From a bacterium (lineage in GTDB: Bacteria > Elusimicrobiota > Elusimicrobia > UBA1565 > UBA9628): 64,000 nucleotides of DNA. The stretch is taken from the NCBI GenBank assembly GCA_021810245.1, contig JAJZJF010000001.1:5582-69581 (forward strand), given 5' to 3'. Below the pieces are notes generated by a model, which saw nothing but the letters and a program-made list of their open reading frames with translations, did no database searches and had not been told where the DNA came from. Positions 1 to 11,097 of the stretch are shown here, piece after piece. Each line of letters starts with the position of its first letter. The stretch's first letter is position 1. Position numbers and translations under genes: made by a program.

Positions 1-392
1 CTCCATCTTCAAAAATAAACTGCGAAGGAATTTCTTTCGCGGCTATCTTACAGAATAGGCAGGAACCCATTGATTATCTTTATTATTATAACCTTTCCAA
101 GTCTCTCCCCGCAAGGCTAAGCACGCCCCCCCCAAGTTCAATATGCTATTGCAACACTTTGAAAAGTGAAGACCTGCGGTAGGATAGGCAGGTATGAGGA
201 AATACAAGCGTATAACGTTGCATGAACGAGAAAAGATTGCAGTTTGGAGAAGCTCGTAATCGTATGTCCAGATCCTTCTCGTTAAAGTATAATGTCCTCA
301 CTGGGTATAGCCTCCTGTTCTCTCAAGAACGAGCTATGCCCTTACTTCTTTTCTACCCGCTCATTAAAGTCCGAACTTTATTTTGCGTTATC

Positions 393-474
393 GCGAATGC
401 GAATTTGCTCCTCAAGCCCGGATTAAACAACTATTGACGGCTGAAGACTAGAAAATTAGGGAAGGTGCGGAATT
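393..474. repeat. Left copy of an 82-bp perfect direct repeat (identical to 11016..11097); it also supplies the last 6 codons and the stop of hsdR
   Basis: I aligned the two stretches by eye. 393..474 and 11016..11097 are identical over 82 bp (gcgaatgcgaatttgctcctcaagcccggattaaac...gggaaggtgcggaatt). Confidence 0.9.
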
Positions 475-2774
475 GTTGGGGAGGGGTTTCGTTCATAGAG
501 ATATTTTTGAAAATCAATAAAAGCGGCGCTGATGGATTCAACGCTGCCAAGTGTTTTTATGGCATCGTCCAGCGCGTGATATTTCAGGGTTAAAAGTTCG
601 GGTAGTTTTTCTCGGTCAAGTTCCTCAACCCCGGTTTCAATATACTTGGAGAGGACAAATTCCAAAAACTCTTTCTGGTTTTCGTTTAATGTGTCGAAGA
701 TATCAAACTGGGCTTTGGCTACGCGCATTTCCCGCGTGATCGGTTTTCCCGCGAAAGAAATGTATTCCAGAACATCGAATAAATCGCTTTTTTCGGCGTC
801 AATTAATTTCTGCAAGCTCGCCAGCTCGTCTTTGCCGTATCCGGCGTCATTAAGTTTTTGAAGCAACGATTTGCGCGTAATGGGACTAGACCAGATTTTA
901 CGCAATTCATCTTCGCTCTTAAAAAAATCGGGCAACTTTCCAAACAGATTTCGTAAAAACTCTTCCGCTGAAACGGGCTTGCCGTCGGCGCTCCAAAAAG
1001 ATGTCGCTATCATGTGTTGGATTTCGCGCTCTTTCCCATCTCGAAGTTTAATTTTGATTTTCTTTCTCGGCTGCGACGGCTCAGGTGGATCGGGCGGCTC
1101 AATAGGAGGTTCCTTGGGCCGTTTTATTTTCGGCTCGGGCTCTATCGGTTCTCCGTCCCATTCAGGATCGGCAAAATGATGATAGGCGTTCACAAAATCA
1201 TAAATAGTGAAATACTCTTTGCCGTCAAAAAGCCGCGTTCCGCGTCCGATGATTTGCTTAAACTCAATCATGGAATTAATCGGACGCATAAGAATGATAT
1301 TGCGGATATTGCGGGCGTCCACTCCAGTGGAGAGCTTCTGCGATGTCGTCAAAATGGTCGGGATAGTCTTTTCATTGTCTTGAAAGTGGCGCAAATACTG
1401 TTCTCCCAGAAGACCATCATTGGCGGTGACGCGCACGCAGTAGTTTGGCTCTTTACTCGTTTTGTATTGATTGACTAAATCACGGACGGCTGTCGCATGA
1501 TCTATAGTGGCGCAGAATACGATGGATTTTTCGTTTTGGTTCATTTCAGATAGAAATATCTGCACTCGTTTGGCTTCGCGCTCTTTAATCTCAATGATTC
1601 TGTTGAAGTCAGGCTCTTTATAAAGTTTTTCTTTTTCTATCTCGCCATCTAAGATCCTGTCATCAGCTGTGTAAATATAGTCATCAATCGTAGTCTTAAT
1701 CCGTTTTATTTTAAAGGGCGTTAGAAAGCCGTCATTGATGCCTTCTTTAAGCGAATAGATATACACGGGTTCGCCGAAATAACGGTAGGTGTCCGCGTTT
1801 TCTTGGCGTTTAGGTGTTGCGGTCAGGCCCAACTGAACAGCGGATGAAAAATATTCCATGATACCCCGCCAGTTGCTTTCGTCATTGGCGCCACCGCGAT
1901 GGCACTCATCGATAATAATGAAATCAAAATAATCGGCGGGGTATTGGCCGAAATAAGGCTGGTTGTTGGGGCCGCTCATGAAAGTCTGGAAAATAGTGAA
2001 GAAAATGCTGGCATTGGTTGGCACCGCGCCCGCTTTTTTGATTTCTTCAGGCCTAATTCGCGCTAAGGCATCTTCGGGAAATGCGGAAAATTCATTAAAG
2101 GCTTGGTCCGCCAGAATGTTCCGATCTGCCAGAAACAAGATGCGCGGTCTTCTTGAACCGTCACGCTTCAAATTCCAACGAGTTTGAAAAAGTTTCCACG
2201 CGATCTGAAAGGCGATAAAAGTTTTTCCCGTGCCTGTCGCTAAGGTCAACAAGATGCGCGGATTTCCATCGGCGATGGCAGACATTGTTTTATTGATCGC
2301 AATTTCCTGATAATAGCGGAGACTTCTCGCTCCACCCATATCGTTAAAAGGAACCTGATTAAATTGATCTCTCCAATGGTTTTTTGGGGCAAAAGATTTA
2401 TTCCAGAGTTCATCCGGCGTAGGAAATTTAGCGACCAAGCCTTCTTCACCGGTTTCCATGCAAATCTGATAAATTTCTTTTCCATTGCTGGAAAAGGTCG
2501 TGTCTAAATGGAGTTTCTCGGCGTAATTCTTGGCTTGCCCTACGCCTTCCCCCACTTCTTCCTCATCGCTTTTCGCTTCAAGAGCGGCGAGTTTTCTACC
2601 CTGGTACATCAACACATAATCGGCGATGAGCGGCTTGGCGCGCCCTCCGCCGGTCTGGATTTTTCCGTTAGTAATGCGATATTCCCGAAGGATTTTAGAA
2701 TTCTCGACTACACCCCAGCCGCTCGCTTTGAGCGCGGGATCAATAAGTTCAGCTCTGGTGTCGGCTTCGTTCAT
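456..2774 (-). CDS. hsdR: Type I restriction enzyme R subunit (HsdR, 772 aa)
   Basis: The N-terminus MNEADTRAELIDPALKASGWGV is the characteristic HsdR start. It has the DEAD-box helicase motifs TGTGKT and DECHR. It is the last gene of the hsdM/hsdS operon, and its start overlaps the stop of the upstream gene (ATGA). Confidence 0.9.
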   Translation of the reverse strand: MNEADTRAELIDPALKASGWGVVENSKILREYRITNGKIQTGGGRAKPLIADYVLMYQGRKLAALEAKSDEEEVGEGVGQAKNYAEKLHLDTTFSSNGKEIYQICMETGEEGLVAKFPTPDELWNKSFAPKNHWRDQFNQVPFNDMGGARSLRYYQEIAINKTMSAIADGNPRILLTLATGTGKTFIAFQIAWKLFQTRWNLKRDGSRRPRILFLADRNILADQAFNEFSAFPEDALARIRPEEIKKAGAVPTNASIFFTIFQTFMSGPNNQPYFGQYPADYFDFIIIDECHRGGANDESNWRGIMEYFSSAVQLGLTATPKRQENADTYRYFGEPVYIYSLKEGINDGFLTPFKIKRIKTTIDDYIYTADDRILDGEIEKEKLYKEPDFNRIIEIKEREAKRVQIFLSEMNQNEKSIVFCATIDHATAVRDLVNQYKTSKEPNYCVRVTANDGLLGEQYLRHFQDNEKTIPTILTTSQKLSTGVDARNIRNIILMRPINSMIEFKQIIGRGTRLFDGKEYFTIYDFVNAYHHFADPEWDGEPIEPEPKIKRPKEPPIEPPDPPEPSQPRKKIKIKLRDGKEREIQHMIATSFWSADGKPVSAEEFLRNLFGKLPDFFKSEDELRKIWSSPITRKSLLQKLNDAGYGKDELASLQKLIDAEKSDLFDVLEYISFAGKPITREMRVAKAQFDIFDTLNENQKEFLEFVLSKYIETGVEELDREKLPELLTLKYHALDDAIKTLGSVESISAAFIDFQKYLYERNPSPTIPHLP

Positions 2775-3607
2775 TGGAGTTTCTTTAAGTCTTTGGGCGG
2801 CGGCAAATAGCTTTCATTGGAAATGACTTTTCTGCCGGTTTTGCTTTCTAGTTCTACTCGGGCCTTTTTAGCGATGCTGCCCCCCGTCTTTGCCGCAGAT
2901 TTATTTTCAGTCATTCCGGTGGCCTCAGCGCTTTCAGCGATCTGGCGTGTGGACAATTCGGCAAGAGCGGTAAAGATCAGCTCCGCCTCAGTCATATGGT
3001 CGCGCAGGTTTTGGGTTTTAAGGCCTTTGAGATTTTTATGTTCCTGAACGCTAATGTCGGCCCATTCCTGATGGATGATGTTGGTCAGAATGGCGTATTC
3101 ATCGCCTTTTTTAATTTTATGATTGGCCCAATAATCGGTTAGCTTATTGCGCGTTTCCTGCCCCGTCATGCGCTGCTCAATCCACTTCTCGCTGCGGCCA
3201 TGTTTTTTCCAAGTTTCGCGGGCGCGGTCAAGGGAAAGCGCGGGGTCAGACATCTCTTGCATCCGTTCGTAACCGACTTTTGCCAGCCAGAGTTTAATGG
3301 GTTCGGCCTTTGGGCTGGGAACGCTCTGCACAAGGCGCAAGAGAGTTTCCGCGGTAGCGGCATCGGTCAGCCGCATCTTCCCGTCATCGGCGGCCATTTT
3401 CAACTGGTAACAATTTGATACCAGTTGACTGCCCTCCTTGGCCAAGCGGCCTTTTAAGACCTTCCAATACTTCCTGGCTGCCTGATAGTCCGGCTGTCGC
3501 GTTAGGACTCGGATAATATCTACGACTGAAAACCACCAGGTTTCGGTCTTTTCATCGTAACTGCGGCGAATCTTATGACCTTCGAAAATAGCTAGATTAT
3601 TTAACAT
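2771..3607 (-). CDS. DinD/RhuM-like Bro-N domain protein (DNA-damage-inducible protein D family)
   Basis: The N-terminal FEGHKIRRSYDEKTETWWFSVVDIIRVL matches the Bro-N/DinD pattern, and the C-terminal layout resembles E. coli DinD. A strong AAGGAGG RBS sits 5 nt upstream of the ATG. The ORF overlaps the hsdR start by 4 nt. Confidence 0.7.
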   Translation of the reverse strand: MLNNLAIFEGHKIRRSYDEKTETWWFSVVDIIRVLTRQPDYQAARKYWKVLKGRLAKEGSQLVSNCYQLKMAADDGKMRLTDAATAETLLRLVQSVPSPKAEPIKLWLAKVGYERMQEMSDPALSLDRARETWKKHGRSEKWIEQRMTGQETRNKLTDYWANHKIKKGDEYAILTNIIHQEWADISVQEHKNLKGLKTQNLRDHMTEAELIFTALAELSTRQIAESAEATGMTENKSAAKTGGSIAKKARVELESKTGRKVISNESYLPPPKDLKKLQ

Positions 3608-3700
3608 TGCATCCTCCTTGATGGCCCATGATATGTATACGATTAGTGGCGCTATTTAGTTCCATTGCTAAGAGTTTTCCACTTGCCGTTCCATAATGTC

Positions 3701-3840
3701 TCATCGGTGGCGGCATCGGCCAGTCGCATCTTGCATCTTCCCATTATCGGCGGCCATTTTCAACTGGTAACAATTTGATACCAGTTGACTGCCTTCTTTG
3801 CCAAGGCGCTCTTTGAGTTTATTCCAATACTTCCTAGTGG
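3701..3840 (-). pseudogene. Diverged partial duplicate of the central part of the DinD-like gene (about 35 codons, RKYWxKLKxRLxKEGSQLVSNCYQLKMAADxGKM)
   Basis: The nucleotide stretch around 3730..3835 is near-identical to around 3368..3470 (ggcggccattttcaactggtaacaatttgataccagttgactgcc...). There is no matching N-terminus, and the reading frame is broken by an indel after GKM. Confidence 0.7.
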
Positions 3841-3872
3841 AGTGTCTTCCATAAATCCATTTACAGTCCGTC

Positions 3873-3963
3873 ACCCCGGCAATCCGTAAGCCGGGGTCCA
3901 GACGCAAGCCTCCTGTCAATTTCAGCCGATCTCTCAAGCCTGGATTCCGGCTTCCGCCGGAAT
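3873..3963 (-). other. Two GC-rich perfect hairpins (accccggc/gccggggt at 3873..3897; attccggc-ttcc-gccggaat at 3944..3963) downstream of the RT gene, with no following T-run
   Basis: The 8-bp perfect stems were read directly from the sequence. They are not followed by U-tracts on the transcribed strand, so they are not classical intrinsic terminators. Confidence 0.5.
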
Positions 3964-4004
3964 GACGAGGGAGCCAAATGGAAAGAAGCGTTGGAGCGAC
4001 TAAA

Positions 4005-5654
4005 CTATTTGGCATTGGCGCCCCTCGGCGATTTGGAATTTTTCGTTGATGATGCCTTAGTTTTTGACGGTGTATGAGGCCTAGAAGGAAATTGGAGGAA
4101 TCTGAAATTCGATTTCTTTAAGATGGATAAAAATGATTGGGCATTCCTTTCCAGATCTTTAGCCGACCATGTTTGATAGATGAGTAGCCATTGCCTGTCG
4201 CGTGCGCGTGAATCGTCGGATTTTAAAGCGTCGGATCTAATTTGAATTTCTTTTTGAATTAGCTTCAGATTGTGGCGTTTAGAATATTCCAGTAAAAGCA
4301 CGGAGAGAAGGCAATCATTCAAATCAAGCGCTTTTAAGAGTTCGGATTCCTGTAGTTTTAGATGGGTCTCATGCTTCAGTGCGTAGTAAAGTGCATACGC
4401 TATTGCATCGGGATAAATCTTCTTGAGCCCAATACGAATCAGATTCGCTGCAAATCCCGCCACAGCAACACCCAGTTTTTCATGCGGATATTGGTCAAAG
4501 ACATGTTGGTCCAAAATGGGAGCTAGGTATGGATAAGCGAGTACCAGGTTGATGGCCTCTTGGAGATACATCTTCCGCGCTCGCTGGTTGAGGTTTCTCG
4601 GCATCATTTTAATTGCGTAATTAAGAGGAGAGGATGTGCTATTTAATTGCGAAAGCTCAATGGCCAAATCAAGAAAAGAACGGATATTTGAATACTTGAC
4701 GTCTTCACCACTAGGAAATACAAATCGATTCAACTCCCGAACCCAATTTTCCTCGCTTGGCCTAGGGAGGGGAAATATCCGTGTCTTCTTCTCATTGATC
4801 GTCAACTCGTATTCTCTTAAGGCTAACCCGAGGTCATGGAGGAATTGTTCGGCTTCATCACGCGAGTCAGCGTAGAATTCGTAATCATCGATGTACCGTT
4901 TTAATTTGGTGTATCTCTTTTTCAACATTTCATCATCGATGTGGGTTAGAATAATCTCAGAAATGATATTTGAAGCGTGTGGTCCTATTAGCAATCCATT
5001 GGTCTGACTATCGCGAGTGTGCTGCGTGCACTGATCAAGCATATTCCCATACAGCGTCAGTAGGCGATGGTCTTTCTTAGCGGCATTGCGGCCATGTAGT
5101 GCCCATGGAATTGAATGTGTGTAGATGCTGGGAAAGCACGCTGAGATATCCGTTTTAGCGATGTATTGTGCGCCTGCCATCCACTGGAGCTCGTTCTCCT
5201 CTAACTCAAAGCGATCTGAACCCTTATAATTCATTTCAAAAATCCGACCTCCACTTAGTGGGCGTACATAAACCTGACTCACTCTTCTCTTCGGCTTAGC
5301 GTAATGCGCACGGAGTTTGTCCCAGTGTTGTTTGATAGCGAGTGCTTGAACGGAATAGCTCTCTGGATGAGGGATGCCGAGGTGACGGGGAATGTTAATA
5401 TCGCGTAGCGCCGCATAGCGTATATAGTCATGCGAGCATTTCTTGAGGACTTTCTTAAGTTTTTCCTCATTGGACTGAGAGAAGATATTTTTGAAATGAT
5501 TGCGAGCCATTTCTGCTAGGCCCTTGGAGGTAAAGCAAGGTGGTGGTTTCTCGCCGAAAAGACCGTGATCCAAGAGACCGATTAAGATCGCATCGGCAGT
5601 TAGTTCTCTGTTTCGGGCCAGGAATATTTTCATTGCTGGTTCATAGTTGGCCAT
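4005..5654 (-). CDS. Stand-alone reverse transcriptase (549 aa) of Abi/DRT-like defence type, with an RT domain and a C-terminal alpha-helical domain of about 220 aa
   Basis: RT motif 1/2 is TDISACFPSIYTHSIPWAL, and the finger/palm region is GLLIGPHASNIISEIILTHIDDEM. The catalytic motif C is YIDDYEFYA (YxDD). There is no maturase/X domain, endonuclease or Cas domain. The ATG sits 14 nt upstream of the hsdS stop, so the two are translationally coupled. Local GC is lower, about 40%. Confidence 0.8.
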   Translation of the reverse strand: MANYEPAMKIFLARNRELTADAILIGLLDHGLFGEKPPPCFTSKGLAEMARNHFKNIFSQSNEEKLKKVLKKCSHDYIRYAALRDINIPRHLGIPHPESYSVQALAIKQHWDKLRAHYAKPKRRVSQVYVRPLSGGRIFEMNYKGSDRFELEENELQWMAGAQYIAKTDISACFPSIYTHSIPWALHGRNAAKKDHRLLTLYGNMLDQCTQHTRDSQTNGLLIGPHASNIISEIILTHIDDEMLKKRYTKLKRYIDDYEFYADSRDEAEQFLHDLGLALREYELTINEKKTRIFPLPRPSEENWVRELNRFVFPSGEDVKYSNIRSFLDLAIELSQLNSTSSPLNYAIKMMPRNLNQRARKMYLQEAINLVLAYPYLAPILDQHVFDQYPHEKLGVAVAGFAANLIRIGLKKIYPDAIAYALYYALKHETHLKLQESELLKALDLNDCLLSVLLLEYSKRHNLKLIQKEIQIRSDALKSDDSRARDRQWLLIYQTWSAKDLERNAQSFLSILKKSNFRFLQFPSRPHTPSKTKASSTKNSKSPRGANAK

Positions 5655-6792
5655 GAAAGGCTTGGCGCAACAGCGATTTCTTCAACTCATCAAGCGCGGC
5701 GAGTTTTTTCTTATAGATGGCTTCGAGATACTGGGTTTCATTCGACAATTCATTGAGTTTTTCAGTAATTTTGATCTGTATCGCAAGCGGAGGAATATTG
5801 ATGGGAAACCCCCTAAGATAACCAAGGCCAACGAACTTTTGTGTCGTACCCCTGGCATCCTTCATCATTTTTGAAATTACCAAACCTGAACCCAAGTAAT
5901 ACTTCAGAAACGCGCCATTTTGTCCTGGAGGGACCTTGAACAATGCGACATTCTTTATCGCAAACTTTGGCTCAATAGTTACACGCGTTGGATTGCCAAT
6001 CGTTCCAATCATCGCAAACAATACGTCTCCTTTGTGAACCGCGCTTCGCTCGTTGATTTTATTGTAATCCTGTTCATTGATCAGATTAACTTTATCGAAC
6101 GATAACCCTTCATGTTTTAGGTTCTTCGATGTTATTAATGGGTAACCGGTCTCATGATATTTCGGCGAATCGTGTGTCCCATCGCGAACATCATACACTT
6201 CTCCCAAACTGGCTTTCACCCACCCCGCGCCGCGCTGGGTAAAGATGGTTTGCAGATGACTTTCAAAAAGCTCGCGGGCATTTCGCAGGTTCTTTTCGGC
6301 GTTGGCTTTGGCTGTGGCGATGCCGTCAAATGCTTTGTCGAGGATGCCGACGATGCGCTTTTGTTCAGGAAGCGGAGGGCATGGAAACTGAAGATCGTAC
6401 AGGGCATTCTTATCGAGATGTGGAATTGCAGCGCCAGTTTTCGCTCCATTGAAGACTTCAAATGTAGAAGCCAAGAATGCCCGAAGGTAGTTGTCATCAA
6501 TTTCCGCTTTCTTGGAAATTTTTCCCATCGTTGAAGAAAGAATGCCTCGGAACCCGGTAAATACTTCGCCAGAATTTGACCCATCACAAATGATGATAGT
6601 CTCTGATGTTTCGACAGCGATGGAGTTTCGATCTTTAAGCGACGCGTATTCAGCATCTTTGCTATTGCGCATAACCTTTGCGACTAAGTAAGGCAAGTCG
6701 CCATTCAATGGAGTTCTTTTTAAAACTGGTTTGCGGCCCTTGATTATTTCACAAACATCGCCAAGACGCTTATATTGCCACCCGTTTTTCAT
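5641..6792 (-). CDS. hsdS: Type I restriction-modification specificity subunit (HsdS)
   Basis: The conserved central HsdS spacer LPEQKRIVGILDKAFDGIATAKANAEKNLRNARELFESHLQ is present, with two variable target-recognition halves. It lies between hsdM and hsdR. Confidence 0.85.
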   Translation of the reverse strand: MKNGWQYKRLGDVCEIIKGRKPVLKRTPLNGDLPYLVAKVMRNSKDAEYASLKDRNSIAVETSETIIICDGSNSGEVFTGFRGILSSTMGKISKKAEIDDNYLRAFLASTFEVFNGAKTGAAIPHLDKNALYDLQFPCPPLPEQKRIVGILDKAFDGIATAKANAEKNLRNARELFESHLQTIFTQRGAGWVKASLGEVYDVRDGTHDSPKYHETGYPLITSKNLKHEGLSFDKVNLINEQDYNKINERSAVHKGDVLFAMIGTIGNPTRVTIEPKFAIKNVALFKVPPGQNGAFLKYYLGSGLVISKMMKDARGTTQKFVGLGYLRGFPINIPPLAIQIKITEKLNELSNETQYLEAIYKKKLAALDELKKSLLRQAFHGQL

Positions 6793-6841
6793 ATCAGCAA
6801 CTTAATTTTCCCTAGCACTCCCGCGCTTTCGGCGTCCAGCG

Positions 6842-7675
6842 CTACTCATCGCCGTCCTTCTTGCCTTCCCTCAACTTTGGCAAACGCCGATCGCCGCTGA
6901 GTATGCGCATTTGTTGGATGGCGATTTGGTTCAGGCGGCGAAGACGCTCGGATTGGACGTGGCCTTCAGCGATAAAGAGCGCATTGAGGTTTTCTAAGTT
7001 AGACAAGCAGACAAGCTGGGCGCTACCGGCCTGATCCCGGATATTTCCTTTTTTGCCTGGATTTTCCCCGCGCCATTGGGCTGCGGTCTTTCCGAACAGC
7101 GCCATGTTTAGCACGTCGGCTTCACTGGCATAGATCAGAGCAGTTTGCGCAGGACTTAACTCAGGCGGAATCAAGTGTTCGCGTACGGCATCGGTGTGAA
7201 TGTGGTAGTTGAGTTTGGCGAGGTTGCGCCGGATGTCCCAGCCGAGCGTCTTATGCTCTTCCTCCTTAAGTCGCTGGAATTCCTTGATGAGATAAAGTTT
7301 GAACTCGACCGAAATCCACGACGCGAATTCAAAGGCGATGTCCTTATGGGCATAGGTGCCGCCGTAGCGCCCGGCTTTGGAAATAACGCCGACGGCGGCG
7401 GTTCTCTGTATCCACTGCTTGGGGGTCAATGTAAAGCTATTGAGCCCGGCCAACTTTTTAATCCCGTCGAATTCGACGGGATTAAAAGCGGGGTTATTGA
7501 TCTGTTCCCAGACCCCTAAAAATTCGATGGTGTTGCGGTTCCGTAGCCAATTGCGGATAAGATCATCGGTGGCATCTTTGTTCTTATAGCGGGCGATGTC
7601 GGTGAGACAGATATAATCCTCTTCCGCGACCGTCAGCATTTGGATCTCACGGCTTAGCACATTGAGCTTGGCCAT
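6842..7675 (-). CDS. KilA-N domain protein embedded between hsdM and hsdS
   Basis: The N-terminus MAKLNVLSREIQMLTVAEEDYICLTDIARYKNKDATDDLIRNWLRNRNTIEFLGVWE matches the KilA-N pattern. The ATG lies 1 nt after the hsdM stop (TAGAATGGCC), and the ORF track start at 7747 is an upstream over-extension. Confidence 0.75.
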   Translation of the reverse strand: MAKLNVLSREIQMLTVAEEDYICLTDIARYKNKDATDDLIRNWLRNRNTIEFLGVWEQINNPAFNPVEFDGIKKLAGLNSFTLTPKQWIQRTAAVGVISKAGRYGGTYAHKDIAFEFASWISVEFKLYLIKEFQRLKEEEHKTLGWDIRRNLAKLNYHIHTDAVREHLIPPELSPAQTALIYASEADVLNMALFGKTAAQWRGENPGKKGNIRDQAGSAQLVCLSNLENLNALFIAEGHVQSERLRRLNQIAIQQMRILSGDRRLPKLREGKKDGDE

Positions 7676-7676
7676 T

Positions 7677-9137
7677 CTATTTTGGAAGCAACACTTTGAT
7701 ATCCCCCAGCGCCTTTGCGCTTTCGGCGTCCAGCGCGGCAATTTCATCCATGATTATTTTTGGGTCGCGGAGAACTGTTTCATCTTTCTTGTGCGGATTT
7801 TTTACTGAGAGGTCAAAAGTATTTGTATCAACATTGGCAATATTGATTGACCATGAATTTTCTGAATCGGCTTTGGTTTTTTGCAATTTCACGAATTCCG
7901 CCAAGTCATTTTCATTGAGCGGATTGGTCTTGCCGAGGTTTCGGTCTAAATTGAGTTGGTAAAACCAAATTTTGCGCGTGGACGCGCCCTTCTCAAAAAA
8001 CAGCACGACTGTTTTTACGCCTGCGCCTTGAAACGTGCCTCCGGGGCAGTCCAGAATTGTATGCAGATTGCAATTTTCTAGCAAAAGTTTTCGCAGACTG
8101 ACAGAGGCATTATCGGTGTTGGAAAGAAACGTGTTTTTGATCACGACACCCGCCTTGCCCCCCGCTTTCAGTATTTTGATGAAATGCTGGAGAAACAGAA
8201 AAGCGGTTTCGCCGGTCTTAATCGGAAAATTTTGCTGGACCTCGGCGCGTTCTTTGCCGCCAAACGGCGGATTGGCAAGAACGATGTCATAACGGTCTTT
8301 TTCCTGAATATCGGCTAAATTTTCCGCGAGGGTGTTCGTATGCACGATATTGGGGGCTTCGATGCCGTGCAAAATCATATTCATCGTGCCGATGATATAG
8401 GCGAGTGATTTTTTCTCTTTGCCGTAAAAGGTCTTTTTTTGAAGCGTTTCCGAGTCTTTGGTATTTAGGCTCTTGCTGGTTTTTAAGTATTCAAACGCTT
8501 CGCACAAAAAACCCGCCGATCCGACTGCGCCGTCATACACTTTATCGCCTATGCTGGGCGCTACCACCTTAACGATGGTTTTAATGAGTGGACGGGGCGT
8601 GTAGTATTCGCCACCGTTTCTGCCCGCGTTGCCCATATTCTTGATTTTGCCTTCATAGAGATGCGACATCTCGTGTTTTTCGGCGCTGGAGCGAAAGCGC
8701 AGTTCATTAACGCGGTTGATGACCTCGCGCAGGTTGTAGCCGCTTTGGATTTTATTTTTGATCTCGCTGAAAATTTCGCCGATCTTGTATTCGATGGTGT
8801 CAGCGCTTTCGGCCGAAGTATTAAATTTTTTGAGATAGGGAAACAGTTTTTGATCAACAAAATCTTTAAGGTCATCGCCCGTCAAGGCTTTGTGGTGGTC
8901 AATTTTTCCGTCTTTATCTTTGGGAAACGCCCAGACTTCCCATTGATATTGTTTGTCGATAATCCCGTCATAGGATTTGCCGGAAAGCTGGGCGGCAGTT
9001 TTTTTGTCTTTCTCAAAATCATCCAGATATTTTAAAAAGAGAATCCATGAGGTTTGCTCCACATAATCTAATTCGCTGCTGCATCCCGCATCTTTGTGAA
9101 GTATGTCGTCTATGTTTTTAAAGGTTTGTTCAAACAT
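7677..9137 (-). CDS. hsdM: Type I R-M N6-adenine DNA methyltransferase (HsdM)
   Basis: It carries the NPPFGG catalytic motif (LANPPFGGKERAE) and an N-terminal HsdM-type domain. It is followed by hsdS and hsdR on the same strand. Confidence 0.9.
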   Translation of the reverse strand: MFEQTFKNIDDILHKDAGCSSELDYVEQTSWILFLKYLDDFEKDKKTAAQLSGKSYDGIIDKQYQWEVWAFPKDKDGKIDHHKALTGDDLKDFVDQKLFPYLKKFNTSAESADTIEYKIGEIFSEIKNKIQSGYNLREVINRVNELRFRSSAEKHEMSHLYEGKIKNMGNAGRNGGEYYTPRPLIKTIVKVVAPSIGDKVYDGAVGSAGFLCEAFEYLKTSKSLNTKDSETLQKKTFYGKEKKSLAYIIGTMNMILHGIEAPNIVHTNTLAENLADIQEKDRYDIVLANPPFGGKERAEVQQNFPIKTGETAFLFLQHFIKILKAGGKAGVVIKNTFLSNTDNASVSLRKLLLENCNLHTILDCPGGTFQGAGVKTVVLFFEKGASTRKIWFYQLNLDRNLGKTNPLNENDLAEFVKLQKTKADSENSWSINIANVDTNTFDLSVKNPHKKDETVLRDPKIIMDEIAALDAESAKALGDIKVLLPK

Positions 9138-9759
9138 GGCGATTCCTCAATTGTTGATTCATTGGAAGCAAGAGCTTATTTATGGGAAGGCTCTTTTCCT
9201 TCTTAAAAAAATAATCGAGATTTTCTTTCCCTCCCGGCAGCAATTCCTTCGATTCGGAATCATAATGCATCCATTTAGGATATCCCCATTGTTCCTGAAG
9301 CCAAAAGATGTTCTCCCAATCCTCCGAATCGGCATAGTGCTCTTTCTGTATGGATGCCTTGGTAATATAAAAATAGGGAGCAAAAAAATCGAAGAGACTC
9401 TGGCGGACAGTGTCACGGTTCACTTTCTCATTTTTTATTAGGTAGCCTAGGTTTTCGAAGAAAATCATTATTGGAGCGTAAACTCTTTCTAAAGCATCTT
9501 TATCTGCGCTGGACCTTTTACAGGAATAATGAAGGGCGCAGAGCCCTCTATCTCCTCTAAGAGTGTATGCGAATTCATTCCACATCAAACGCCACAAATC
9601 GACTTGTGCCTGCTGAATTTGATGGTTTAACGTCTTATTGGCGGTCCTCGTAGTCCACAAAGCGGCAAAGGCGGCTCCGGCTGTTGCAATTGCCCCTACC
9701 GCCATCCAAAAGGTAGACGAGACAAGTAATTTTAAATATATCCAATGACTAGGGCACAT
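9130..9759 (-). CDS. Uncharacterised protein with an N-terminal transmembrane helix (209 aa); first gene of the hsd operon
   Basis: The ORF has a hydrophobic N-terminus (LKLLVSSTFWMAVGAIATAGAAFAALW) and its stop overlaps the hsdM start by 8 nt. I found no recognisable domain. Confidence 0.5.
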   Translation of the reverse strand: MCPSHWIYLKLLVSSTFWMAVGAIATAGAAFAALWTTRTANKTLNHQIQQAQVDLWRLMWNEFAYTLRGDRGLCALHYSCKRSSADKDALERVYAPIMIFFENLGYLIKNEKVNRDTVRQSLFDFFAPYFYITKASIQKEHYADSEDWENIFWLQEQWGYPKWMHYDSESKELLPGGKENLDYFFKKEKSLPINKLLLPMNQQLRNRHV

Positions 9760-10163
9760 CGGCTTAATTTTAGCATTCTAAAATACCGTGTAACTGCTCT
9801 TGCGTCTCTCCCCAGCAATTCCGCACATCGCAGCGGAAGCGTCGGAAAATGTGGCGAAATCCAAGCTGGCAGATTCGCGGATCATGATTTTGAGCCTAGG
9901 AGCGACGCGGAAGCGGCGTGACGGTCATAAAATCAAGACCGGCCCCAACACCGCCGCCCCAGCGGCTTGCCAGGGTGGTAGGATAATATTGCGCGGCAAG
10001 ATAATAGTCTAAGGAGGTTGCGCCCAAAAGGATTCCAGCTTCTGTAAAACCAAGTCATCCATGAATAGCCGTGATAGATGTAGCCTGGTGCGGCCTTGAC
10101 GCTGCGGCCGCTTGAGATTACGGTCAAAGAACACCGTCGTTAAAAAGAACGCTAAAAAAAGAA

Positions 10164-10989
10164 TCATAAAATTGGCCAGCATCGCTTGGTGAACCGCTTT
10201 AATAACCGCAGACCCGCCGAAGCCTCCGTATCCCCCGGCAAGAGCGGCTCTATATCCAGTTCAAGGACGGGCGTAACGCCAACCAACTGCAACACAACGT
10301 AGCGATGGTAATATTGGGTTTTTATTCCGCCCTCGACTTTAATGTCTCGCCTCATGCAGCCAGGACAGCGCCGCTTAAAGCTGCAGTAGGGTTCCTGCCC
10401 ATCTAATGCGCCGACCCAAGGATCCCAGCGGGCGGGGATTTTTAACTCCTGCCCTAGAGCGTTGTGGCTGCCCAGGCGCATGGCGTGCATCCCAAATTCG
10501 CTCAGCCACACCGCCCGAACGGGAATTTGAGGTTCTAAGCGCCCATCATGAACATGGGACAATAACTCCTCAAAATCCCATGTCCGCTCCAAATACTTCG
10601 CAAAGCGCGACAACACTTTCTTTTTAGGCTTTTCCCCTTCCGATTTCCTTCCAACGTTCATCCCCAACAATCGCAAGAAGCCTCCGCGCTTCTTGGTAGC
10701 TCTTGGCCCAGTCTCGAATCTCATCAAGCTGCTTGGGCGGGATGCTTTTCATTCTCATTTTCCCATGTTGGCTTTGGCTGGCATACCATGAGATATGCCA
10801 GTAGCGCTTCCCCTTAGCGCAGCGGCAGGTGGCCGTGCCGCAATACCGCTTCATGGGAACCAGGTTGGCTCTCAATATCCCTCTGCTGCCGTTCATTATT
10901 TGACGAAGGCGGGCGCGAGCCGTCCGTTCTTTAGCTGATTTTAACGCCATGACGACCTCCTTAAACATGATATTACTAATATATATCAT
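10164..10989 (-). pseudogene. Zinc-ribbon (CGTATCRCAKGKRYW...) protein split into two overlapping frames (121 aa and 187 aa); possibly a degraded mobile-element recombinase or transposase gene
   Basis: Two same-strand ORFs (10624..10989 and 10164..10727) overlap by 104 nt in different frames. Cys-rich motifs are present (CxxxCxC and CSFKRRCPGC). It sits 26 bp inside the right direct repeat. Confidence 0.4.
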
Positions 10990-11015
10990 GTTATAGCGAT
11001 AAAGTCAAGCAAAAT

Positions 11016-11097
11016 GCGAATGCGAATTTGCTCCTCAAGCCCGGATTAAACAACTATTGACGGCTGAAGACTAGAAAATTAGGGAAGGTGCGGAATT
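11016..11097. repeat. Right copy of the 82-bp perfect direct repeat
   Basis: Identical to 393..474. Confidence 0.9.

Follow-up and report, generated by a model that had tools for sequence, protein, structure and literature searches.

A probable DRT4-type reverse transcriptase as cargo in the hsdS-hsdR slot of a Type I restriction-modification operon from an Elusimicrobiota bacterium

Why does a stand-alone reverse transcriptase (RT) gene lie between the specificity and restriction genes of a Type I restriction-modification (R-M) operon, and is it an integral part of that operon or cargo carried by it? We addressed this question in a 64,000-nucleotide stretch of an Elusimicrobiota genome (GenBank assembly GCA_021810245.1, contig JAJZJF010000001.1, positions 5,582 to 69,581 of the forward strand; hereafter the window), in which an open reading frame (ORF) of 549 amino acids (aa) at 4005-5654 on the minus strand carries RT motifs. 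An earlier reading of the window, made from its letters and translated ORFs (hereafter the sequence-only reading), had suggested a composite R-M plus RT defence module or, alternatively, an RT templated by the hsd mRNA or by a non-coding RNA (ncRNA). Comparative evidence makes it likely that the gene encodes a DRT4/UG15 enzyme, i.e., a class 1 UG/Abi RT that acts as an autonomous abortive infection (Abi) system, and that it sits as co-transcribed cargo in the slot between hsdS and hsdR.

Placement of the RT by profile, by sequence and by fold converges on DRT4, which upholds the earlier suggestion of a defence RT from the UG, Abi or DRT classes. The only Pfam domain in the ORF is RVT_1 (residues 154-294, E 5.8e-13), and its motif C is the YIDD at residues 254-257, so that the RT motifs reported by the sequence-only reading are indeed there. 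The stretch DISACFPSIY, which that reading had labelled motif 1/2, is likewise present, but TDISACFPSIY proves to be motif A, its Asp169 aligning with the metal-binding Asp149 of Escherichia coli DRT4. The PADLOC Drt4 model matches RT residues 9-521 at 1e-152 (model positions 3-501 of 506), with weaker matches to its sister models (Drt6 8e-100, UG30 8e-61, AbiK 1e-39, and UG14 and Abi-P2 also well below). In NCBIfam, the best match is "antiviral reverse transcriptase Drt4" (437.5 bits), compared with 55 bits for group II (cut-off 300) and 37 bits for retron RTs (cut-off 235), and the best sequence matches in the PDB are entries for E. coli DRT4/UG15 (E 1e-52, RT residues 37-496). DRT4 as a family comprises 1348 proteins at E ≤1e-10 among the candidates scored.

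The predicted fold agrees with this placement. We built an AlphaFold2 monomer model of the RT from 19 homologues (predicted local distance difference test, pLDDT, 71.7; predicted template modelling score, pTM, 0.73), in which approximately residues 303-513 are all-helical and form an alpha-repeat domain in place of the thumb; the C-terminus had been described as helical and devoid of any extra enzymatic domain, and both the model and the Pfam result bear this out. A Foldseek search with the model returned as its top folds DRT4 (9vdo, template modelling score, TM, 0.73 on the target), UG15 (9l9s), DRT6 (9wy8), AbiK and Abi-P2, with whole-chain alignments to 9vdo, 9l9s and 9wy8, so that the two alpha-repeat proteins proposed for comparison by the sequence-only reading, AbiK and Abi-P2, are both among the best matches. 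Folds of RTs belonging to group II introns, to diversity-generating retroelements (DGRs) and to retrons were far weaker (TM ≤0.3 normalised to the query), which together with the profile scores puts the RT in class 1. At the level of single residues, alignment with E. coli DRT4 gives the following correspondences:

Priming tyrosine: Tyr125 of E. coli DRT4, Y143 of the window RT ("EMNYKG" against "MNYED")
Motif A aspartate: Asp149 of E. coli DRT4, D169 of the window RT
Aspartate pair of YIDD: Asp240/241 of E. coli DRT4 (YIDD at 238-241), D256/D257 of the window RT (Y254-I-D256-D257)
Deoxynucleotide (dNTP) binding: Arg75, Asn271 and Lys274 of E. coli DRT4, R90, N287 and K290 of the window RT
Further tyrosine: Tyr337 of E. 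coli DRT4, Y346 of the window RT

All of these functional residues, whose roles are taken from work on the E. coli enzyme (PMC12783706), are invariant across the alignment of 19 homologues.

DRT4/UG15 has been described by Gao et al. 2020, Mestre et al. 2022 and Wang et al. 2025 (PMC12783706), and UG15 has a defence-association frequency of 0.45 (supplementary data of Payne et al./Mestre et al.). The E. coli enzyme is a hexamer (a dimer of trimers) that constitutively makes random single-stranded DNA (ssDNA) independently of any template, covalently primed on Tyr125; a host 3'-5' exonuclease degrades this ssDNA, and the trigger is the T5 ssDNA-binding protein ORF55, which shields the 3' end and thereby brings about abortive infection (PMC12783706). 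An ncRNA and a partner protein are both dispensable, the single gene working in E. coli BL21(DE3) (PMC12783706), and the alpha-repeat C-terminus is required for function (Mestre et al., 10.1101/2021.12.02.470933).

By analogy, the window RT would form a hexamer as E. coli DRT4 does and, self-primed on Tyr143 and without a template, would continuously make short random ssDNA that host 3'-5' exonucleases clear in the uninfected state. A phage ssDNA-binding protein that shields this ssDNA would then let it accumulate, and the infected cell would be killed or arrested. The Type I enzyme would in this scheme be the first line of defence, cutting unmodified DNA, and DRT4 the second line against phages that escape restriction, with embedding expected to confer shared transcription and joint horizontal transfer but no biochemical dependence of DRT4 on the Hsd proteins. 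Nothing in the window contradicts this mechanism; co-transcription is probable, and we infer the enzymatic activity, the trigger and the abortive infection from the likeness to E. coli DRT4.

That likeness includes the fingers and palm with an alpha-repeat domain in place of the thumb, the retention of YIDD, the motif A aspartate, the Arg/Asn/Lys residues and the priming tyrosine, and a single-gene architecture with neither a conserved partner nor an ncRNA, neighbours of the RT varying over the 80 loci surveyed below. What sets the window RT apart is its location: it is embedded, and probably co-transcribed, in a Type I R-M operon, and neither stands solo nor lies in a prophage hotspot. An RT joined to an alpha-repeat domain is also the fold of AbiK, Abi-P2 and DRT6 (Foldseek E 7e-15 to 1e-5), all of which make untemplated, protein-primed ssDNA, but their profile scores for the window RT are much below that of DRT4, and in AbiK and Abi-P2 the priming tyrosine is located elsewhere than in DRT4 (PMC12783706).

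The operon around the RT contains a complete Type I R-M set, with HsdM, HsdS and HsdR bearing their characteristic domains and all genes lying on the minus strand with short gaps or overlaps. ORF positions and Pfam matches confirm the gene order given by the sequence-only reading (hsdM, KilA-N, hsdS, RT, dinD-like, hsdR), and the coordinates likewise support its statement that the RT is co-oriented and tightly packed with the hsd genes. The features of the locus are, from its left end in the direction of transcription:

11016-11097: 82-bp direct repeat, left copy (blastn), 10,623 bp from the right copy
9130-9759, minus: 209-aa ORF with an N-terminal hydrophobic helix, its end overlapping the hsdM start by 8 nt
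7677-9137, minus: hsdM, Type I methyltransferase (Pfam N6_Mtase 7.8e-64, and HsdM_N)
6842-7675 (or 7747), minus: KilA-N protein of 277 aa (Pfam KilA-N 1.8e-22; PADLOC PDC-S22 6e-132; PHROG 2657, transcriptional regulator, 3e-58)
5641-6792, minus: hsdS, specificity subunit with two target-recognition domains (Pfam Methylase_S 2.3e-33, in two stretches), stop TGA at 5643-5641
4005-5654, minus: RT assigned to DRT4/UG15, class 1 UG/Abi (longest ORF 549 aa; fingers, palm and C-terminal alpha-repeat domain)
3701-4015, minus: 104-aa ORF, probable remnant of a Bro-N gene (no Pfam domain)
2771-3607, minus: Bro-N protein of 278 aa, the "dinD-like" gene (Pfam Bro-N 5.8e-07; PADLOC PDC-S13 3e-120)
456-2774, minus: hsdR of EcoEI type, restriction and translocase subunit (Pfam ResIII 9e-38, EcoEI_R_C 8e-27, Helicase_C, HSDR_N)
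393-474: 82-bp direct repeat, right copy (blastn), including the last codons and the stop of hsdR

In hsdR, both the nuclease motif D...EAK and the DECH motif are visible in the alignment. The KilA-N gene is cargo of the hsdM-hsdS slot and the Bro-N gene a second cargo of the hsdS-hsdR slot; their PADLOC matches, PDC-S22 and PDC-S13, are catalogued defence candidates, and at 277 and 278 aa the two proteins do not fit the earlier description of small accessory ORFs. The 209-aa ORF, which has no match in Pfam, PADLOC, NCBIfam or PHROGs and is absent beside related hsd operons, is possibly the first gene of the operon, or an uncatalogued cargo or regulator. Promoter and terminator scanning returned about as many sites as expected by chance (17 against 15.1; 20 against 15.3) and is therefore uninformative on transcription units. 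No match to the 9.5-kb locus came from megablast searches of E. coli genomes and plasmids, tblastn with the RT gave distant partial matches in plasmids and none in phages, and no annotated public record carrying this locus was found in these searches of E. coli genomes, plasmids and phages.

How closely the RT is joined to hsdS depends on its start codon. The longest ORF overlaps hsdS by 14 nt (5641-5654), and to this extent the earlier statement that the RT begins 14 nt upstream of the hsdS stop holds; the homologues, however, start at the position of Met8 (ATG 5633-5631) in 18 of 18 aligned cases, which lies 7 nt past the hsdS TGA. The N-terminus of the closest homologue, MKI, corresponds to M8-K9-I10 of the window RT, and Met8, at 5633, is the probable translation start. 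Either start, that of the longest ORF or Met8, leaves the two genes tightly juxtaposed.

To place this arrangement among its relatives, we examined 80 species-level DRT4 loci, which are the best-scoring of 536 and not a random sample, marking Hsd proteins by jackhmmer seeded with the window proteins and counting neighbours independently by Pfam. Type I genes surround the RT in about 26 of the 80 loci (jackhmmer). By Pfam, the RT directly follows hsdS (Methylase_S) in 17 of 77, and an HsdR-type helicase gene lies directly downstream in 7 of 74, with Bro-N (3) and RhuM (2) genes also found there. The hsdS stop and the RT start are separated by -17 to +10 nt in 16 of the 17 loci (208 nt in the remaining one, L061); in several, the end of the RT gene overlaps the beginning of hsdR. 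Embedded members turn up at scattered positions in both deep DRT4 clades of a neighbour-joining tree. One Desulfobulbus metagenome-assembled genome (MAG), whose RT is 61% identical, shows the order hsdM, an MNT/HEPN-like pair, hsdS, RT, hsdR. The context that the sequence-only reading had proposed to look for in other genomes is thus recurrent, and the possibility it had raised that RT homologues never co-occur with hsd genes does not apply.

We also observed DRT4 genes in other surroundings. In six further loci (L032, L034, L036, L040, L059 and L070), from a Verrucomicrobiota-rich subclade, the gene directly upstream of the RT encodes a large methyltransferase of the Eco57I/TaqI_C type (up to about 1180 aa), and this is a second recurrent R-M-type context for DRT4. 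Within the subclade of the window RT, some DRT4 genes are solo beside housekeeping genes, with neighbours such as luciferase-like monooxygenase, phosphomethylpyrimidine kinase or amino-acid kinase genes; others lie next to RhuM or T5orf172 genes.

Looking from the side of the operon, we searched with HsdR as anchor and obtained 80 metagenome loci whose HsdR is 71-81% identical to that of the window (median 76%; HsdM median 82%), the DRT4-carrying loci being more distant (HsdR 61-66% identical). Among the 60 of these HsdR relatives with hsdS visible, hsdS abuts hsdR (gap ≤25 nt) in 42, the other 18 carry cargo, and DRT4 occupies the hsdS-hsdR slot in none. The cargo in these 18 comprises PDC-S13/Bro-N (four loci: L091, L095, L111 and L158), SoFic (L098, 8844-10004), the Gabija pair GajA and GajB (L164, 341-4179), a 549-aa protein with a weak match of SIR2/pAgo type (L166, 2962-4611) and other genes of no assigned type. 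A distant class 1 RT (30% identical) is found in L125, in the hsdM-hsdS slot. On these comparisons the RT is best seen as optional, swappable cargo and not as integral to the hsd operon; of the composite R-M plus RT module that had been proposed, the genetic linkage stands, but almost all of the closest hsd relatives are without the RT.

Where DRT4 does occupy the hsdS-hsdR slot, RT and Hsd divergence are correlated: over 12 such operons the Mantel r is 0.61 for HsdR (reached by 11 of 5000 permutations) and 0.71 for HsdM (4 of 5000). Discordant pairs also occur, such as that of L019, and the pattern fits partial co-inheritance with occasional exchange.

These arrangements agree with what has been published on genes embedded in defence operons. 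Operonisation of UG/Abi RTs with Type I R-M systems has been used as a defence signature (Mestre et al., 10.1101/2021.12.02.470933), and the PDC catalogue draws on genes found inside BREX, DISARM and Type I R-M systems, with co-orientation in 96.7% of embedded genes and PrrC cited as the paradigm (Payne et al. 2024, 10.1101/2024.01.29.577857). The paper on RptR reports DarTG2 between hsdS and hsdR and regards this site as a potential recombination hotspot for defence systems (PMC12255303); upstream of the window hsd operon we identified no RptR-like regulator. With operonisation of UG/Abi RTs, embedding in Type I R-M systems and the hsdS-hsdR hotspot all in the literature (10.1101/2021.12.02.470933, 10.1101/2024.01.29.577857, PMC12255303), and PrrC as the classic case, the earlier claim that an RT between S and R is not a standard described architecture finds no support. 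None of the texts consulted names DRT4 as a common occupant of this slot. The window shares with the "guilt-by-embedding" of Payne et al. the phenomenon itself, the insertion site and the co-orientation of the genes, and that catalogue is the source of its two other cargo types, PDC-S22 and PDC-S13; what differs is that the cargo is DRT4. On this reading the window RT is a DRT4 member, the Type I R-M operon offers an already known site for cargo, and the locus is an instance of ordinary stacked defences rather than a new kind of system.

As such it shows cleanly, in a natural setting, three accessory genes for defence (DRT4, PDC-S22 and PDC-S13) stacked in one Type I R-M operon, and the comparative data picture this operon as a chassis with two cargo slots that are filled differently by lineage. 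The census figures (about a fifth of the species-level DRT4 loci nearest the window RT directly follow hsdS, and the nearest hsd relatives mostly have an empty slot) are useful for defence-island biology and for choosing loci in which to study synergy between restriction and abortive infection.

Is the RT nonetheless coupled to the restriction enzyme, in the way that PrrC is? An embedded DRT4 could act as a guard that is held in check by, or senses, HsdMS or HsdR and is unleashed by a phage anti-restriction protein, with operon membership being required. PrrC occupies the same slot in EcoprrI (hsdM-hsdS-prrC-hsdR; 10.1101/2024.01.29.577857) as an Abi gene in the same orientation, and this speaks for such a guard, as do the tight junctions with hsdS and hsdR, the recurrence of the association in each of the two deep DRT4 clades and alongside HsdR proteins of different types, and the correlation between RT and Hsd divergence. 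PrrC, however, is an ABC-ATPase anticodon nuclease that is kept silent through physical association with the restriction enzyme and has the anti-restriction peptide Stp as its trigger, and it is almost exclusively R-M-embedded (10.1101/2024.01.29.577857), whereas DRT4 is a polymerase that is often solo, follows hsdS in about 22% of loci (17/77) and lies near Type I genes in about a third (~26/80). The near-exclusive embedding of PrrC is thus not found for DRT4, solo genes occurring among close relatives of the window RT. The closest hsd-operon relatives have no RT. The strain BL21(DE3) is deficient in hsdS. E. coli DRT4 defends alone in that strain, and an ssDNA-binding protein from the phage, as opposed to an anti-restriction protein, is known to trigger it (PMC12783706). 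We therefore consider a guard of this kind unlikely for the window RT. For slot-resident DRT4s in general, PrrC-like coupling, whether by restraint through the Hsd complex or by a translational tie to HsdS, with release when a phage blocks restriction, seems to us a slightly more doubtful proposition still; were it true, a restriction system and an untemplated DNA polymerase would make up one two-layer sensor-effector unit.

Several points do weigh against an autonomous DRT4 cargo. The RT shares no more than about 28% identity with the E. coli DRT4 that has been characterised, its NCBIfam Drt4 score is 12.5 bits under the 450-bit equivalog cut-off, and Phe140 of the E. coli hexamer interface aligns with an alanine, so the oligomer may differ from the E. 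coli hexamer. The DRT4 loci were moreover drawn from the top of the score range, and the recurrent position after hsdS, the near-overlapping stop and start codons and the RT-Hsd correlation would fit a functional link as well; linkage alone would also yield the correlation.

The proposal that the RT is templated, copying a flanking ncRNA or the hsd mRNA into cDNA in the manner of class 2 DRTs, retrons, DGRs and group II introns, draws on two features of the sequence downstream of the gene. The 397-nt spacer that separates the RT from the Bro-N gene (3608-4004) folds more stably than shuffled sequences (z = -3.76), and a 103-nt repeat in it recurs inside the next gene, superficially like the template and variable repeats (TR/VR) of a DGR. 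This DNA repeat (3733-3835 against 3373-3475) has 85% identity and includes a common 29-nt palindrome, with 20 mismatches over a 112-nt comparison that show no adenine specificity, and BLASTP aligns residues 58-94 of the 104-aa ORF with Bro-N protein residues 42-78 at 78% identity over 37 aa; the ORF is probably a Bro-N gene remnant. A DGR TR/VR pair was excluded because the mismatches lack adenine specificity and the repeat is the Bro-N remnant, and a structured ncRNA in 3608-4004 was rejected because the stretch is a gene remnant whose palindrome also occurs in the Bro-N gene, and because the closest homologue lacks the stretch.

On its upstream side, the RT abuts hsdS. The RT stop and the hsdR start overlap in the closest homologue (77% identical), which shows that the downstream spacer is not conserved with the RT, and in this and several other homologues the RT abuts hsdS and hsdR directly. 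No Rfam match was found at E ≤1 in window positions 1-11000. The profile, sequence and fold placement in class 1 DRT4 is far from retrons, DGRs and group II introns, and the RT does not fall in one of those clades with the matching RNA elements. DRT4 needs no ncRNA (PMC12783706), and its published activity is untemplated and protein-primed, which makes an ncRNA or hsd mRNA template unlikely. The idea of a templated RT is by now largely refuted, and we find it scarcely credible for this gene.

Debris in the slot, namely the 104-aa Bro-N remnant, and a MAG contig (L001) on which the locus is rearranged and without hsdR could instead suggest that the RT is a decaying insertion with no current function that the operon tolerates. 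The RT ORF is intact at 549 aa, however, with all catalytic and priming residues, it matches the Drt4 family model over its full length, and an identical RT protein is present on 14 contigs from several samples; an inactive passenger is accordingly very improbable, and DRT4 cargo is the reading that we retain.

Fragments of Bro-N/PDC-S13 genes beside intact copies were observed in the window (3701-4015 against 3373-3484) and also in L091 (2690-3541 and 6400-6609) and L026 (11783-12663), which suggests cargo turnover by recombination between Bro-N alleles.

The contig L001 (GCA_027406885.1) matches the window at 100% identity between 15654 and 3079, the latter position lying inside the Bro-N gene, and beyond this breakpoint at about 3079 it runs into unrelated genes (HAD hydrolase, ROK, ABC transporter), hence its lack of hsdR; the breakpoint reflects either a genuine deletion or rearrangement or a chimera made in assembly.

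The perfect 82-bp direct repeat (100% identity, blastn) brackets the 10.6-kb hsd island as a whole; it resembles an att-type duplication or the scar of a recombination, and would permit precise excision. No integrase or tRNA was seen at the island with these repeats, and a search for the empty site in a relative met synteny that was already broken there. Just inside the left copy, at 10164-10989 on the minus strand, a Cys-rich DUF6788 protein of 121 aa overlaps a Cys-rich ORF of 187 aa, a pair that could be the remnant of a mobile-element gene.

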